Assembly: GCA_051942245.1 (NCBI GenBank)
Contig: JAVECL010000024.1
Location: 62,001 to 94,397 of the forward strand
Origin: Trypethelium eluteriae
Lineage: Eukaryota
Direction: 5' to 3'
DNA length: 32,397 nt
Part shown: positions 21,154-30,400 of the stretch, one piece after another
Layout of the letters: every line of letters starts with the position of its first letter
Position numbering within the stretch: position 1 is the stretch's first letter
The notes under the pieces: generated by a model
Databases searched by the model: none
What the model saw: the letters and a program-made list of their open reading frames with translations, nothing else
Told to the model about the DNA's origin: nothing
Made by a program: the position numbers and the translations under genes

Positions 21154-23866
21154 TCAGTGCAGTGCAACAGCAGAATCACTTTCGACTGACGAGGTAGGAA
21201 CGGTGACAACATGTGACCCTAGAGCTCTCCGCAGCGACTCTTGGAGCATGGCAACATTTACTCTCTGCCCACCCCGGCGAAGCAACGTCTCGATTCGGCA
21301 ACACCATGCATGAAGTCGGTCATCTGGAATGCTCTCCATGAGCACGTTTTGTGGGTCCACATCTGTGGGAGGGAAAGTCCAGGGCAATCTATCATACGTA
21401 TCACCGTGGCGTAGCCAGCGTAGCCGCTCAGGCGTAATCACGGCCGCCACATTTCTCCTCAAAGAAAGATTTTGCGTTCGTGCATCATCAGGAACACGCT
21501 CGAGCGCGAGCTGCGAAGCCCTAGTGCAATGGATTGCACGCGGTGCGATGTCCATGGCGTTTGGATCGTGAAGCCGATCGTCCAGGTATGGACTCGATGG
21601 TATCTCTGCTTGCTGCACTTGTGATGGCCGATTGGCTTCGTTGGGGATTTCCTGAAGAGCAGAGCTACACTGGCTAATCTGCCGCTGAGTCCCTTGACTT
21701 CCGCACATTGTACTCATATGAGAGTGCTCGATCGGAGTAACATTGTCGATGTCCATGAGTGGCGAGGATGACGTACGACGATCGCCTCGCGGTACCATAT
21801 ACTCTTCGATACGTTTATTTTTAGCAGGTCCTTCCAGTATCATAGCTTCATCTCCTTTCGGTACTAGGACTTTAGCCGCATCCTGTATCTGCTGATGCCA
21901 GTTTCTACCAGATTTTGGTGAACCAGCCTGTTGAGTCGATGCTCTGTTGGAGACTCGTTTGCTTCGATCGACATTGAATGAGACTGGAGAGACAAATGGT
22001 TTATTGATATTCGCTGGAGGTGCGTTTTGACGACGGGGCCTTCGCTGAGAGGGTAGGGTGATGTCGGGAATCATGCCAAGAGGAGTACCCTCCGGACACT
22101 GTGGAGGAGTATAGTTGACTGGCTGGGGTCCTCGGGTAGGTTGCGGCGAAATACGTTCGGCTTCGTCCGTTGCTGGTCGCATGGAAGAGTAAGGAAAGAT
22201 TCCCATTTGTTCCAAAGACGGTTCCGAGCCAGACGTCCTTGGAGGTGACGAAGATGCTTGTGGAGTTGGCAGGTACGGAATCTTGTCGAATGGATTTGTC
22301 GCCCTAACAGGAGCTCTGGACCTTGGCTGCGTTGATCCCGGCTGCAAGCTTCTCACATCGCTTTCGAGAGTCACGCTCTTGTTATTGGGTGTCGTTGCAT
22401 CGACTGGTTTACGGAGGGGTGCATTCATTTTCGCGATTACCCACGGGTTCGATATGGTAACATCTTGAGATTCCTGATCTTGCTCTTCATCTATTCGAGT
22501 TCCGTTTTGGTCCTGCAGTCTGCTTGCAGGAAAGTGTGGTTCATCTTCGTCATCTAGCTCAATGTCGCTATACATATTCGATCGAACACTGTCGCGTCGT
22601 CTATACGTAGGCTGAGTGTCTTCGTCAATGAGATCTTCGGGCACCATCTCCAATTCATCTGATGATATAGCTTTCATAGCTTCGGCTAAATGGTACTCCT
22701 CAGGGTTTTCTCCAGTCTTCATCTTATATGCTTCTTCGATCAATCCGGTCCAACCCTCCACCAATACTGTCTTATCCACGAACACGACGTCGTCTTTTCC
22801 AGGCTCAACATTCACGTCGTAGCTTCCAAGCGGACATGTCAAATTCAACAGCAGCACTGGGTTCTTTCCTCCCTCAACGCCCACCTTCTTCATCCTCTCT
22901 TTCCACAATCCCACCATCTTTCTCGCCGTTCCCCTCTTCTCGTTCAAAATCCTGCCATCCACGCTTACAAACTGTCCCACACCACTTATTTTCTCCCGAT
23001 CGGCATCCGCCTTTGGCAACAATGCCTTGAAGCAGTACCCTTCGTGCTCCTTCGAAAACCATTCACATATTCCCAGACATGCTCTCCCGACTACCTTCCT
23101 AGCCGCCTGCTCGACTCCATCTCCCGCTCTCGGAGCATAAACCCAATCTCCCTTCACATCGCCACTCTTCGCACCCACGCCTTTCACCTTCATCGCAAAC
23201 CTCACCTCCGGCCTCGCCAAAGCATATCCCTCCACCAACCTCCTCACCTCCCCAACCCACCTCCCTGCCTCCCTCTCCAACCCCTTCCTTCTCACCGGCC
23301 ACCCAACAAACAACCCCGAAACCAGCACACTCGTCCCCACCGGCGCACTCATCCTCTCCAGCTCGCCTATACCCCCTCCCCTCATCAACCGCATGCCCAC
23401 CGCCGTAGCTTCCCCTTCCACCCTCGTCACCACGCGCACCTCGTCCGCGACTTCAGCGATGGCCGCGAGCGCCTCGCCTCGGAACCCGAGACTCTGTCCG
23501 CCGAGAAGGCGCAGCTCGTCGAAGGAGGCGAGTTTCGAGGTGTGTGAGCGTCGGCCGAGGAGCGGGCGGGAGGAGGGCGGGATGCCGGTGCCGTTGTCGC
23601 GGAGGGTGAGGAATGGTGGACTGGAGCTCAGTATGGACGACGGTGGTGACCGGGAGGATGAGGGCGAGGAAGAAGGGAGTATAGACGAGGAAGAGGAAGT
23701 GGGAGCGGAAAGGAGCGAAGAAGGACAGAGGATGATGAGAGATGGAGGTTGCGCGGGCGTCGAGGGCGTTGTCGAGGATTTCTTTGGCGACGGCTAGCGG
23801 AGAGGAGATGAGAGTTGTCGCAAGGAGAGGGGAGGCTGTTGAAGGTGGGAGGGCGCGGATTGACAT
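21154..23866 (-). CDS. MutL-family mismatch repair protein (MLH2/PMS1-like) with a frame disruption near 23740
   Basis: GHKL motifs KEILDNALDA, RDNGTGI, HTSK, LGFRGEAL, GTSV, and DVNVEPGKDDV. No DQHA(X)2E endonuclease motif seen in the C-terminus. The first ~42 codons are in a different frame from the rest. Confidence 0.8.
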
Positions 23867-24445: not shown

Positions 24446-27400
24446 TCATCCTTCAGCCATTTCCGTGTCATCGCCAGAGGTCAAGTTGGCATCAGCTTTC
24501 CACTGGCGGTACTCCTCATTGTACCCATCCACCTGCTCCTTGCTGAGTCCTTTCATCCACGCATTGTTCATAATGAGCTTCTCCTTCACATCCTCCACCG
24601 CCTTCTCCGCGTCGCCAGTCTCGCCATCGCCATCCTCTCCCTCGGCACGTCCTGCACCGTCAATGTCCCCGGACATGCCCTTGTTCCCACTGTTGACACC
24701 GTCAGTCTCGGTAGTAGGATGAATGACAGGCCGCCGAGCGAAGGCGTGAGGGTGATACAGCATGTCTTCAGAGTTTGGCGCGAAGAGTGGCGTGTAAGTG
24801 CGAGTGCAGATGCGCATTTCCAACTTCTCCTTGGATTTGATGTTGGTGAAGCGCTGAGAAGCCTCGGCTTGTGCAACAGTCGCTGCATTAGGGCTCTTGT
24901 CGGCGTCTTCTATCATGTTCTCACCATTGATCATGTTCGTATCAACACCATCAGAGGCATCGGGCAAATTCTTGCGTAAGACAGCGGTGTGCGTGAGGTG
25001 CACTGGCACACCTTCAGTGGGCTCGATGTTCGTGTAAGAGGAGATATAGTATGTCCAGCGGTTGGCAGCAGACATGGTGTCGATGTTGAATGTCGCGTCG
25101 TCCTTCTTGAAGATTTGTATCTGTGTACGCATCTCTACCTGGTCCTGTACGAAATCAACGTCAGCAGCGGTTCTGTGATACGAATCTTCTTCGTGCCACA
25201 ATAGATTCATGCACAGCATCGTCAGTCTCACTAGTGCGCACAGCACACAATGATTAGGACAAAATGGGTTCGGTCTGGGGGATGCGGTTGGATGATGGAA
25301 GGACAAGGTGCAGTGGTGCGGGAGAGAATAATGAAATCCAACTTACAAACTTGAATCGGTAAATGTCACCCTCCTTGCAGTACTTCTCCACTTGTTTGCG
25401 ATAGTTCAGCTCATCTTGATGAGTTGTTTGTTCATGTACACGATCCTTCTTGAAAAGTTGGATAATGTCCCAGCTCTTGTCCTTTCCATCGTTTGCCATG
25501 ATCGAGATTGCGAATCTGGTCAAAGAACTAAGGAGCTTCTCCAGCTGATGGAGCAGGTATCCGCACTGTAGATAGTAACGGCGAAGGGTTTCCTCAACTT
25601 GACTTGGTTCGATCTCTTGCTGGACTTGCTCACTCATCATGCGTAACATTTGGCTGTAGTAGTTGCAAGTAGGACCGACTTCGTAGAAGAAATTCGTGGG
25701 CAGTTTATCGATCATATTAAGATCTATCGCAGCCTTGGGTCCCATTGCGAGGTCCACTGTATGGTGAACTGCTTGCTCACTGTCTTTGAGTCGCTTTAGA
25801 CGCTCGTAAAGGGTGAAAAACATCCGGAAGAAGCATAAAATGGAGAGGTTGGCATAGAGGTGATAATTGTCGCGCTTATACGGTTCTTCAGGTCTGAGAT
25901 TCTGCATGTTGAAGTTGTTTCCGTCAACTGGATGTTCCACCCATTTCTCTGGAGCCAAGTCCTCGACGGGTTCGGTCTTTGGTGCTGGGATGTCCGGAGC
26001 ACCCGCTGGATCATCATCGGCAGCAGATACGGCTTCAGGGCTGCTGCCCCTGCTTGAAGCAGCGATACTATCTTCCTTGTCACGCCGCGCTGGTCGACCG
26101 CTGCGTCCACGTTCCAATAGGCCGCGTCTCAAGTCTTCCTTCTTTCTGTTCGTCTTACGGGATCGCGCAAGGACATCATCTGAAACAGACTGGTCTTCGT
26201 CAAGATTATCATCCGCGGCCAAAGACTCGAAACGACCTTGGATGCTTTGCTGGAATTTGCCTTGGTCGAAGCCGAAATACAGGGGCAAGAGTTCCTTGAT
26301 GAATGAAACGAGGCGGGGAACTTCGGTGGAGTGGTTGTATTCGGCGTAAGTGAGAAGAAGGCTGGAAGTGTCCAGAATGACATCGATATCATTGTGTGTA
26401 AACTCGAGTTGGAAGCTGGGAACGTTGCTGTATAGCATTTGGCGGGCACGCTGCTGTTCCTCCCACTTGACAGAGATCTCCTGCTGAAGAGTCTTCATTT
26501 GGAATTGTCGCTTATCGCCCTGTCGAGCAGCGAACCACTGATGGTCAAGACTCCTGTAGAACGACTTGCTCGTCTGTTCGCGCCAGATCTTATCCCATTC
26601 GCGCTGGATCGGATGTCAGTGGAGAGGTCAGGAAAAGATGTGGACGAAAGTGCATACCTGAGCGGCCTTCCACTCTTCAAGCTTTGCCTGGAGTCGATTG
26701 AAGAGAAGAGGTACAACTTCGCTTGGCTCCTCAGCAAGGCCACGGCAAACGACTTCTCCCTTCTCGCGGCCGTACATTTTCTTGATGACTCTCTTGTGGA
26801 TGGTCCTGCTCTGACCGCCAAGACCCTCGGGTAGTCGCATGTTCTTACGTTCTTGTTCCGTCATATTCCTAAGTTGCTGTGCGTACGGCGTAAGAAGCTG
26901 GACTGTGCGGGACAGTGCCTCGATGTTGAAGTCGTAGTCGTGTCGTTCTTCTTCGATGCGGTGAAGTGTTTCTTCGTACTGATTCTTGCGATGTGCAACA
27001 AAGCCGGAATCTTCGGAGGCCCAAGTAGGATGAGAAGCCCATTCGTCGTTAAGCACGGCATGACAGAGCTCGTCTCGTCCGCTGCAAACTTTCATCTTCT
27101 CCTGTAAGATATCCAAAAGTCTTCGGTCAGCCTTCCATACGAACTGTGGTGCATGCAGAGAACGAAATATTGGTTCAGGGCTTTCAAAACAGAATCCATC
27201 AGACGTAACGCCAATGCATCTGTCGTAAGAAGGAGACATGCGATTGGGGCGGAGAGGGTATAGAGTGGGGCGTCTTTTTTTCCGACGATCCTTCGGCTTC
27301 TCCGTAGGGACTCTCGCGATGGGGGTCTCCATGATGAGTTCTGCCCATTGTGCACTATCAAGTGCTTCGAAGCTCGCCTTTTTGACTTGTGGGAAGATGG

Positions 27401-30400
27401 CGTCAGGTTGACAACCACGCACGTTGGATTCTACAACTTTGCGTTCTTCCTCGGCGATCTCTTCAAGGCTTGATTGCAGCCTTTTGCGGGCTTCCTCATT
27501 CATGGGCGAGAGAGCGCGTTTGCGCTTTTGTCTCCCCGACACAGGCAGTTTTGCCGCAAGGACCTGAATGGATTCTGCTACCGGAGCTTTGCTCCTGGTG
27601 CTAACCATTTTGGATGACAAGTTGGAAAACTTGAGGGATGATGGAGATGGTGCAAATTTGGGGAACGATCGGAATGATGAGGCAAGGTTTTTAGAGGGAA
27701 AAGTCCATGAAGGAGGGCACCATGAGATTTTGTACTTTGGCAACTCCAAAATGACAATAGGAAGCTAGCAAACAGCAACTGAAGAGGCTGGGACAATGCG
27801 GCAGAAAAAGACAACAATAACATGAATAGAGAAATGATGCAGGACTCACCCTCTTCGGTAACAGCCTGTAACTAGGGGTCAGGCCCCTGCAGTTCGGGAG
27901 GCTGGGACGGTCGAGCATCACACGAGGCCTATTTTCCACGACAGTATCTTTATCGTCATATTTCAAGAAAGCCTTGAAGCCGTCCATGAGATCATCACTG
28001 CTCCCGATGTAGGCGTAGGCGCGATATACGAGTTCCCCCTTGGATAAAAGGTCTTGAGAGAAGAGGTTGCAGAGCTTGAGGAATTCCGACATGGTGTTTT
28101 TATTACCAATGTGCTTCTTCACTCTATCAAAAAGGCCTAATTCGTCCTGTGTTGCAGCATAAGACGTTCCTGGAGCCATTGGCTCTGGCAGAGCGGGGAC
28201 AAGTGTGGGCGAAACGTTATGCAATTCACGTTGATCGAGAAGTTTTGCGCCGTGTTGATATTTGGTACGCTTTGTAAACATCAAGTCAGCATATTTCTCA
28301 TATAACAGAGGTCTTGGCATTCCAGGAAGCAGTCCGTGATCACTACGGTAGCGAAAAAAGCGTAGTGATCGACCGGCTTAAATCAAAGAAGGCGAGAATG
28401 CGACCCACTGCCAAACTAGCGAGGAGGTTGGTAGGGAGATTGGAGTGACGCAATTCACAGCACATGTGAGTTGCGAACCCTCCAAATCACAATCGTCCGT
28501 GCCCTATGTGTCTCACCCCGATGGATCATACAGAAACTGACAATAGGACTAAAGGCGGTGAGCCTGGTTGAAACGAACGTACCTTATTGACACTGCTGGC
28601 TGCTCCCGTACCACCTCGAGCTGCAGCTGAAGGACCAGGCTCAGTTGCTACGGCCAGAGCAGAACTGCTCGCGGCAGGCGGTTGCCGCTCAGCCCCGCGC
28701 TTGCGTTTGTTGTCCTTATTCGCACTAGGTGTCGGAGCGAAGTTGCCCATCGGTGGCAATTTTGTCTGTTCCACTCGTGGTGTTTGATGCATTTGCGGGG
28801 TCTGACTCGTTCCATATATTGGTTCACGCAAGTTGCTCAGCATCGTGACATCTTCAGGCATTACACCTCCAGCGGCTTGTCGAGCTGCTTGCGCACGCGC
28901 GTGAGCAGCAGATTCAGGGAGAAATTGTTTGAAGTCTTCGAGAAGGTCGGGTGCAGAATTGAAAAGATGAGTCACTTGCGCGTAAACGTCCTGGATTGGT
29001 TTGGACTCGCGCTGGTAAGTTTGTAAAATTTCAAGGAATTGCTTGTAGATATCAGGTTGAGAAGCAAAGCGAGTCTAGGTTGCGGTAATTAGTCTAAAAT
29101 TACGATCACACATGGAAAACACAGGACGTACCTTGATCTTGTTCACGTAGCTAATCGCATGGTTGAACTCCACAGGCCCACGCTTTTCAAGCCCTGCACC
29201 TGGTGGACCATCAGGTCCAACACCATTGATATTATGAGGTTGAGGTGTCACGGCCCGTCCAGATGGAGAAAGATGTTGAACTCCTGGCCCGCCCATCGAG
29301 GCACCAGCAGCGACCGTAACAGCATTCTGCAGTTGCGATACCCCACGTTGCTCTTGCTGGTGCGCGAGGGTAGCAGAATTGGCTGCTATCTGCTGCTCAC
29401 GAGTATCTACAGGAGAGGTCTGATTCTGAGTGTGTGGCATAAACAGAGGGCCCATCATGCGACCATTTGGACTCATGCTTATTCCGCCGGGACCAGCTTC
29501 GTTCTGCTGCTGCGGCCAGCCGCCACTAGCGCCTCGGGCTCCGGCATCGTATTGTACGTCTCCTGTAACGGAGCTGGACGGAGGTACGGCTCGTGGCGAA
29601 AGCGGTCGCGGCGCCGGTAACGATGATACAGTTGTGCCCATCGGAGTAGTGACTCGAATGGAGTTCGGATCGTCGCCCATACCGCATTCAATGCGATATC
29701 CAGGAGGTAAAAAGGTATTAAACCCTTGGATCAGATTCGGATTACCGGCAAAGAGGGTCGAGACGCGTTCAATCACTCCCGGCGTATCAATTGCTCCGCT
29801 CTTGAAATCCTTCATAATGTCCAGAAACCGATTGTAGACATCCGGGCTATCTACAAACTGGACCTTGACCTGATCTAGGTAGCTAAGGGCATCATTAAGA
29901 ATTGGTTGCTGCCCTTGACCCACGCTTGCAGCCCCGGACTGGGCACCTGGGCCGGCGGCAAATGGCATGAGAGCTTGTTGTTGACTTTGCGTCATCTGCA
30001 TACGCTGTGGACCGTCCGTCTGCTGTACCGGGCCACCAGCAAAGATATTACTAGGACCGCTAGGAGCACCGAGGTTTGACGAAGTCTGAGGCACTGGCCC
30101 TGGTCCTGGACCCGGACCCGGTGCCGATCCCGGACCTGGTCCAACACTTGCGAGTAGACCATTAGGACCGTGTATGGCTGAGCGAATCTGCGGCGCGACT
30201 GCGTGGGGCTGATGCAGAGGTATCGAGCCCGCGTGAGTTTGATGCTGGGGCCCAGCCTCTTGCGGCTGTCGATCACGGGCCTCACGCTCTCGCTGTTCAT
30301 GCTCGCGTTCATCTTGATACGTCCGATCCCACTCTCGTCGTTGTTCTCTGATTTCCCGCTCGCGCTCAAACTCAGACTGTCCTTGCGAACGACCTTGTAC

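Follow-up and report, generated by a model that had tools for sequence, protein, structure and literature searches.

The fifth intron of the SIN3 gene of Trypethelium eluteriae appears, on balance, to serve also as an alternative first coding exon, from which a Sin3 protein of about 968 amino acids (aa) lacking the PAH domains would be made. Sin3 is the central scaffold of Rpd3/HDAC1 histone deacetylase (HDAC) co-repressor complexes, and its PAH domains act in the assembly of the Sin3 complex and in its recruitment via transcription factors and partner subunits. The gene lies on the minus strand of a 32,397 nt stretch of genomic DNA (assembly GCA_051942245.1, contig JAVECL010000024.1, positions 62,001 to 94,397; hereafter the window), and the coordinates given below refer to that strand of the window. 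Its intron 5 (27102-27849, 748 nt) holds an open reading frame (ORF) which runs without a stop into exon 6, and ATG-led open frames occupy the same site in several other fungal lineages.

The open frame of intron 5

Exact mapping of two public models divides the gene into eight exons. The translation of exon 5 (27850-28269), which encodes PAH3 and a linker, matches the PAH repeat PF02671 in Pfam (E = 9.6e-11), and exon 6 (26658-27101), where the HDAC-interaction domain (HID) starts, matches Sin3_corepress, PF08295 (E = 1e-35, profile positions 16-98). PF02671 and the Sin3a_C domain PF16879 are also precomputed for the 1870-aa model Q9157_000971, and Sin3 chains in the PDB match the host protein with E 2e-199; the gene thus belongs to the Sin3 co-repressor family. 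Because the match of exon 6 begins only at profile position 16, intron 5 cuts through that domain. Exon 5 ends with CCG AAG AGG (LLPKR) at 27850 and exon 6 opens with GAG AAG ATG AAA (EKMK) at 27101, the protein junction reading LLPKR/EKMKV. The intron between them begins with GTGAGT from 27849 and ends with GGCTGAC (27132-27126) and TTACAG (27107-27102). A preliminary description of the window had pointed to this 748-nt interruption of conserved Sin3 sequence, which we likewise read directly in the DNA, and had called it about ten times the usual size; this is true with regard to the introns of 54-97 nt, but the gene has two further long ones, of 313 nt (28270-28582) and 202 nt (25145-25346). 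No long open frame passes through either of these two.

In agreement with that description, the final 663 nt of intron 5 (27764-27102, 221 codons) are free of stops in the frame of exon 6, and these codons form part of a stop-to-stop ORF spanning 26628-27764. The open frame goes beyond chance expectation, since over the 663 nt the remaining two frames meet a stop after 24 and 327 nt. The ATG at 27608 (context CCAAAATGG, also read as tcatccaaaATGG) and all peptides quoted previously (MVSTRSKAP... and the basic stretches) are present, and the 169 codons that follow from this ATG in continuity with exon 6 (27102-27608) constitute the candidate alternative first coding exon. The encoded peptide contains two basic clusters, namely KRKR (residues 28-31, 27516-27527), which resembles a nuclear localisation signal (NLS), a role that is itself conjectural, and is aligned to EKRKR in Bathelium, and KDRRKKRR (residues 106-113, 27270-27293), aligned to DRVKRQR in Bathelium. 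A charged helix is predicted for residues 38-63 (27420-27497) by AlphaFold2 with a pLDDT of 85-88, the rest of the ORF part remaining below 50. The last codons of the ORF (27102-27132), as read in the sequence, are at the same time the branch site and the 3' splice site of the intron, a case of splicing signals that serve also as codons.

Codon usage separates this ORF from the sequence ahead of it. The SIN3 exons, together with a neighbouring gene of MutL/PMS1 type (an 879-codon frame at 21154-23793, minus strand, with the mismatch repair domain PF01119, E = 4.8e-7), served as training data for the log-odds. From the ATG onwards, the 169 codons reach +26.0 bits in frame versus -29.8 and -56.3 bits in the shifted frames, while windows of genuine exons score 46 +/- 9 in frame and -43 and -76 in the others; a score of +26 bits was reached by stop-free random sequence in 1 of 5000 cases under a mononucleotide null and in 27 of 5000 under a first-order null (z 2.6-3.1). 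The 52 codons ahead of the ATG are not coding-like (-1.4, -6.9 and +1.4 bits over the three frames), the sliding-window score becomes positive near 27600, and GC at codon position 1 is 0.31 in the pre-ATG stretch versus 0.62 in exons. By codon score and base composition, the pyrimidine-rich stretch 27609-27764 would therefore be non-coding and open by chance, and is a candidate for a core promoter or 5' leader. It contains an A-rich CTCTAAAAAC at 27696-27687, and there is no ATG between CTCTAAAAAC and 27608.

Neither the 221 residues nor three other intron ORFs match any Pfam family, and an Rfam search returned nothing at E up to 1; an intron-encoded mobile ORF, an intein and an intron-hosted RNA gene were rejected on these grounds. 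Searched alone, the ORF had no homologue in a near-length word search and no hit by phmmer against 1.84 billion representatives, a result which is uninformative since the 1870-aa model of the window itself was also missed.

Recurrence in other fungi

The best 120 Sin3 proteins were taken for comparison, and 115 of them could be scored at the intron 5 junction. Canonical spacing without any inserted residue is found in 109; the other six carry extra residues, i.e. the window model (221), Bathelium mastoideum (159), Bogoriella megaspora (152), Rachicladosporium sp. (235) and two proteins with short inserts (16 and 33). The window, Bathelium and Bogoriella represent every species of Trypetheliales among the scored models, and all three carry the insertion. 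By Smith-Waterman (SW) comparison, the inserts of the window and Bathelium are homologous (score 68 versus 30.8 +/- 5.1 in shuffles, with 0 of 2000 shuffles reaching 68), and the Bogoriella insert has no significant pairwise similarity. All three end in Q (..SADNWCLSHYQ in Bathelium, ..QDANRISQ in Bogoriella), and back-translation of the latter two tails allows for a branch site of the form GCTGAC or GCTAAC followed by CAG, which suggests that the distal 3' splice site was kept in all three. Furthermore, the Rachicladosporium insert starts with MVSTRKK where the window ORF starts with MVSTRSK, an end-anchored match that, by a rough estimate from residue frequencies, lies far beyond chance.

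When metagenome contigs were scanned with the ORF and exon 6, exon-6 patterns led to 80 fungal SIN3 loci. Both flanking motifs are present in 71 of them; intron 5 is absent from 36, measures 55-89 nt in 13 and 174 nt in one, and exceeds 200 nt in 21. From the latter, 14 distinct sequences plus the window form a set of 15 long introns, nine of which are open for at least 375 nt into exon 6 in the frame of exon 6, as compared with none and one of the 15 in the two shifted frames; median open lengths are 411 nt in frame versus 12 and 30 nt. In these nine ORF-bearing loci the frame is open over 375-744 nt, and the shifted frames contain 1-8 stops in the six loci checked. Every one of the nine has an ATG after a C/T-rich leader, which is the first in-frame ATG in eight of them (locus L059 has an earlier one), and A occupies position -3 in seven, as read by eye from the contexts. 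In 8 of 8 metagenome ORFs, frame 0 alone has positive codon log-odds, both shifted frames being negative, and the pre-ATG stretch is mostly negative as well. An in-frame intronic ATG with an uninterrupted frame is thus conserved in relatives, as expected of an alternative promoter.

The ORF peptides fall into three groups (SW, 500 shuffles each): L005, L006, L009 and Rachicladosporium (z 5.6 to 39); L068, L069, L075, L074 and L059 (z 3.4 to 18, as a chain of links); and the window with Bathelium. A tree of the HID-HCR region places the first group beside Rachicladosporium and the second in a clade outside Dothideomycetes, interspersed with loci from which the frame or the intron has disappeared. 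What the three groups have in common is the site, the frame, the ATG, basic clusters of KRK type, a tail that encodes the branch site, and a DNA motif upstream of the ATG. The second group has a QNY motif, which resembles the QGNY of a 33-residue insert at the same junction in the model of Thelocarpon superellum, also with a W...GAD tail; this suggests that the T. superellum lineage, too, possesses a long intron, partly read through by its model. A search of the ESM Atlas with the L074 ORF plus exon 6 yielded generic Sin3 clusters only. The Atlas does hold the L074 read-through itself (L074:2743-3468, 242 aa, ORF and exon 6) letter for letter, an entry which is a product of prokaryote-style gene calling on the metagenome and says nothing for expression.

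The upstream motif is CTATTGT. It occurs on the sense strand between donor and ATG in all nine ORF-bearing loci, with 16 copies versus 0.33 expected from the rest of each locus, a fold-enrichment that is overstated because this background is mostly coding DNA, although the recurrence across the three groups is unaffected. The degenerate form YATTGTY has, in the same interval of the nine loci, 23 sense versus 2 antisense copies (0.39 expected). Three sense-strand YATTGTY copies lie in the window within 67 nt (27753-27819), at 27819-27813, 27798-27792 and 27759-27753 (the last forming CTATTGT at 27760-27754), and no second such cluster exists in the 32 kb; one additional sense-strand TATTGTC is found in the 313-nt intron (28545-28539). 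Among the six long introns in which the frame is lost, CTATTGT is kept in L070, L080 and L063 and gone from L073, L057 and L052, i.e. full decay of the ORF tends to be accompanied by loss of the motif. The ACAAT core of the motif bears a resemblance to HMG-box sites. No account of a CTATTGT element in such a setting turned up in open-access papers and preprints. L068, L069 and L075 have, in addition, a conserved TATTTAA box some 85 nt upstream of the ATG, with an ATG-free, C/T-rich stretch between the box and the start codon. The box looks like a TATA element, and its conservation proves little among such close relatives (exon-6 fourfold K 0.56-0.77).

A pairwise codon model gave an omega of 0.24-0.44 in frame in four of five pairs (likelihood ratio test, p 0.034 to 4e-7; the fit of the fifth pair, L068-L075, went to the boundary and did not converge), estimates that are soft because the divergence is saturated (t 2-3.4 per codon) and the alignments were protein-guided. 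The same alignments in shifted frames gave 1.1-2.4, and exon 6 gave 0.02-0.05. Similarly, the third codon position is the least conserved one in 6 of 6 frame-blind nucleotide alignments. The preliminary description had proposed to align the equivalent introns of related fungi and to look for a conserved ORF with dN/dS below 1; the frame kept in 9 of 15 long introns and the in-frame omega speak for it, and the six lost frames do not.

These losses are among several observations which weigh against a short Sin3 encoded from the intron. The 6 of 15 lost frames imply that the element is dispensable in some lineages; in L070 (621-nt intron) a frameshift would have to be bridged by a +1 shift within a lysine-rich stretch, and L080 (488-nt intron) keeps the full frame except for one stop 8 codons before exon 6. 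The L080 stop would leave a free-standing small basic peptide, and both changes could be real losses or assembly errors. Homology between the three groups is not significant, pairwise SW being mostly z <2 and hhalign profile comparison giving E 0.05, 0.5 and 0.2, so that the groups may have arisen independently. The models of Bathelium and Bogoriella have no Met ahead of the basic cluster, and the proposed protein would lose the invariant NCRGLxPSYRLLP segment encoded by exon 5. Most directly, ungapped nucleotide identity in MAFFT pairwise alignments is lower in the ORF (0.46-0.59) than in the pre-ATG non-coding part (0.54-0.71) in 6 of 6 pairs and also falls below that of exon-6 fourfold sites (0.52-0.75), and blastn never aligns the ORF, although it does align the exons and, for L005-L006, the intron as far as the ATG. 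An ORF less conserved than non-coding and fourfold sites indicates weak constraint on its amino acids, and these comparisons suggest that selection acts on the frame, the start and a few short motifs, while the peptide that contains them is disordered and evolves fast.

The preliminary description had noted in the ORF a loose echo of the end of exon 5. When 12 ORF peptides were scored for a copy of NCRGLxPSYRLLP, which takes in this echo, with a position-specific scoring matrix built from 33 unique canonical segments, the best was equalled in 49 of 1000 shuffles, which is not significant, and the echo was dismissed.

The better conservation of the 5' part, its alignment up to the ATG, an ORF that evolves at or above the rate of fourfold sites, the lost frames and the strand specificity of the motif would also follow if the CTATTGT-bearing part of the intron regulated the main gene at the level of transcription, splicing or retention, the frame being a by-product that encodes no working protein; the strand bias, in particular, would also fit an RNA-level splicing element instead of a promoter. 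We regard this as fairly unlikely, for it offers no reason why nine lineages should have 375-744 nt open solely in the frame of exon 6, it leaves the frame-specific codon usage, the omega below 1 found in frame only and the shared N-terminus unexplained, and CTATTGT is gone from the fully decayed L073, L052 and L057.

Splice signals and deposited models

A search with the intron part retrieved a single protein, NCBI 'MAG: hypothetical protein Q9157_000971 [Trypethelium eluteriae]' (1870 aa, 100% identical), which maps letter for letter to the window with an 85-nt intron (27849-27765), followed by translation of all 221 codons. The ORF is therefore not hidden, as the preliminary description had it, but already translated in a deposited model. 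The model of Viridothelium virens, EV356DRAFT_500937 (1649 aa, i.e. 1870 minus 221), differs from the window at two residues in the aligned part and has the whole 748 nt spliced out. Consequently two incompatible public models, of 1870 and 1649 aa, exist for one locus, and neither of them proposes a separate short isoform. The accessible part of the V. virens genome paper is silent on transcript support for its model (PMC7082219).

The two models differ in their 3' splice site. Every one of the gene's 7 introns has a CTRAY branch motif 12-30 nt before the AG. This holds also for the 748-nt intron, in which CTRAY occurs only at donor offsets 443, 647 and 719, all past the ATG (offset 241). Since the motif is present at the 27102 acceptor and absent from the 85-nt intron (27765-27849, acceptor TAG 27767-27765), the distal acceptor is good and the NCBI acceptor doubtful, and the 85-nt intron is probably not a real one. 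That the 27765 acceptor lacks a good branch site had been noted before. The preliminary description had also raised a possible in-frame mini-intron of 39 nt (27140-27102), which we discard given that no more than 4 nt (27134-27131) would separate its donor from the branch motif and that the shortest intron of the gene measures 54 nt.

If the 85-nt intron or another alternative 3' splice site were used, the ORF would be an insertion in full-length Sin3 (1870 aa or somewhat shorter) and form a disordered loop between PAH3 and HID, with the canonical form arising from the distal acceptor; this was the alternative offered in the preliminary description for the TAG at 27765 and is the structure of the NCBI model. 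The phase of the 85-nt intron is right, an open frame into exon 6 would be required equally, and the NCBI models of Trypethelium, Bathelium, Bogoriella and Rachicladosporium are so built, although they are ab initio models. There is, however, no CTRAY between donor and ATG in the window, 3 of 9 loci lack an in-phase AG between the opening of the frame and the ATG, and the in-phase acceptors listed before the ATG are all without CTRAY, the sole branch-bearing candidate lying 12 nt after the ATG of L005. Moreover, the 52 codons that would be included ahead of the ATG are not coding-like, the conserved ATG and MVSTR[SK]K start would be left unexplained, and an insertion is missing from 109 of 115 scored Sin3 models. 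We thus consider an insertion unlikely. The 'insertions' of 152-235 aa in at least four deposited fungal Sin3 models, those of Trypethelium, Bathelium, Bogoriella and Rachicladosporium, are probably the intron ORF read through by the model, and probably lie outside the full-length protein.

Reading through the entire intron is no option either. Because 748 is not a multiple of 3 and the exon 5 frame stops, in the window after 52 intron codons (27693-27691) and in all nine ORF-bearing loci 9-65 codons into the intron, plain retention cannot connect exon 5 to the ORF, and an exitron or translatable retained intron was rejected. In the absence of a usable link to exon 5, an internal start is the simplest model to account for the open frame and its conserved ATG together with the leader and upstream element.

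The frame might finally be a product of chance or a decaying relic without present function in T. eluteriae, and its fast sequence change, the lack of a Pfam or database homologue outside Sin3 loci and the losses in related lineages would agree with this; an intact frame over 221 codons, the homologous insert of Bathelium (0 of 2000 shuffles) and coding-like codon usage make it quite unlikely. Least credible is translation of the ORF by reinitiation or leaky scanning on an intron-retaining mRNA from the main promoter, which would yield separate PAH1-3-only and HID/HCR-only proteins and would suit the stops of the exon 5 frame upstream of the ATG and, equally, the features of ORF and ATG, but in eukaryotic translation reinitiation is not expected downstream of an ORF exceeding 850 codons, nonsense-mediated decay would target such an mRNA, and a pyrimidine leader with a motif cluster is more promoter-like than linker-like.

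The proposed short Sin3 and known systems

Starting from what is observed, i.e. the ORF, the conservation of its frame and start, the splice signals and the retained contact residues described below, we infer promoter, transcription start site (TSS), transcript, translation, protein and function of the short form as follows. The main promoter would give rise to canonical Sin3 by splicing out all 748 nt. A second class of transcripts would start inside intron 5, downstream of the CTATTGT cluster and within or after the pyrimidine-rich leader. An RNA initiated there would have no upstream 5' splice site, and so the branch site and the CAG acceptor would be translated as codons. Translation would run from the ATG at 27608 through 169 intron codons into exon 6 and the remainder of the gene, giving a product of 169 + 799 = 968 aa. 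Its N-terminus would be fast-evolving, mostly disordered and basic, with two NLS-like clusters and one helix, and the rest would comprise the whole HDAC-contacting HID and the C-terminal HCR, without PAH1-3. For the internal start and the ~968-aa PAH-less protein put forward in the preliminary description, the comparative evidence (ATG-led ORFs in several lineages, MVSTR[SK]K, the upstream element and the missing link to exon 5) thus provides partial support.

The residues by which Pst1 of S. pombe holds Clr6 are R615, L618, I622, L623, D625 and E657 (PMC10115800). Exon 6 aligns without gaps to Pst1 610-754, and these contact residues map to exon-6 residues 9-51; as they lie within exon 6, they would be preserved in the short form. 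With the HCR, to which the Ume1/Prw1-type subunit binds, likewise retained, the protein should still bind Rpd3 and Ume1-type partners while lacking the PAH surfaces used for recruitment. The basic clusters of the ORF could confer nuclear import, which would otherwise depend on the missing N-terminal half. Whether such a protein would act as a dominant-negative or as a differently targeted scaffold is a matter of speculation.

More tentatively, and with rather more doubt than confidence, the comparison may be extended to filamentous ascomycetes of several classes, in which the intron at the PAH3/HID boundary would harbour an old module of promoter and first exon, composed of CTATTGT repeats, a pyrimidine leader and a disordered basic peptide which begins at the ATG and whose final codons serve also as branch site and acceptor. 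This module would produce an HID/HCR-only Sin3, a catalytic HDAC 'lobe' uncoupled from PAH recruitment, would have been missed or annotated as an insertion in every genome, and would have been lost repeatedly together with the intron. If true, a short Sin3 would be conserved across lichen-forming and mould lineages, and a deacetylase-binding Sin3 without PAH would provide these fungi with a means of their own for releasing deacetylase activity or directing it to other targets.

Intron-embedded starts of this kind are known from other regulators. The delta-133 form of p53 arises from an internal promoter in intron 4 of TP53 and is a regulator without its N-terminal part. It shares with the proposed short Sin3 the start embedded in an intron, an in-frame ATG, the retained C-terminal domains and a proposed role as modifier of the full-length protein. 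The two differ in gene and kingdom, and in the ~90-235 new intron codons and translated 3' splice signals that the proposed Sin3 case would involve. In fungi, studies of alternative TSS usage are reported to describe regulated internal TSSs that lead to N-terminally shortened proteins (PMC9604717, PMC11302930), and unlike there the evidence presented here is comparative only.

Isoforms of Sin3 itself have been recognised in animals, such as the short form of mammalian SIN3B and SIN3 187/220 of Drosophila. To our knowledge, the known short Sin3 forms keep PAH domains and lose the HID, or differ at the C-terminus. We found no Sin3 form with HID and HCR but no PAH in open-access papers and preprints, in line with the preliminary description, which knew of no account of this isoform. 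In S. pombe, the Sin3 variants Pst1, Pst2 and Pst3 are encoded by separate genes (PMC10115800). The known isoforms and paralogues and the form proposed here have in common that Sin3 scaffolds are diversified for different HDAC assemblies, which S. pombe attains with separate genes and which T. eluteriae would attain with one gene and an intronic start.

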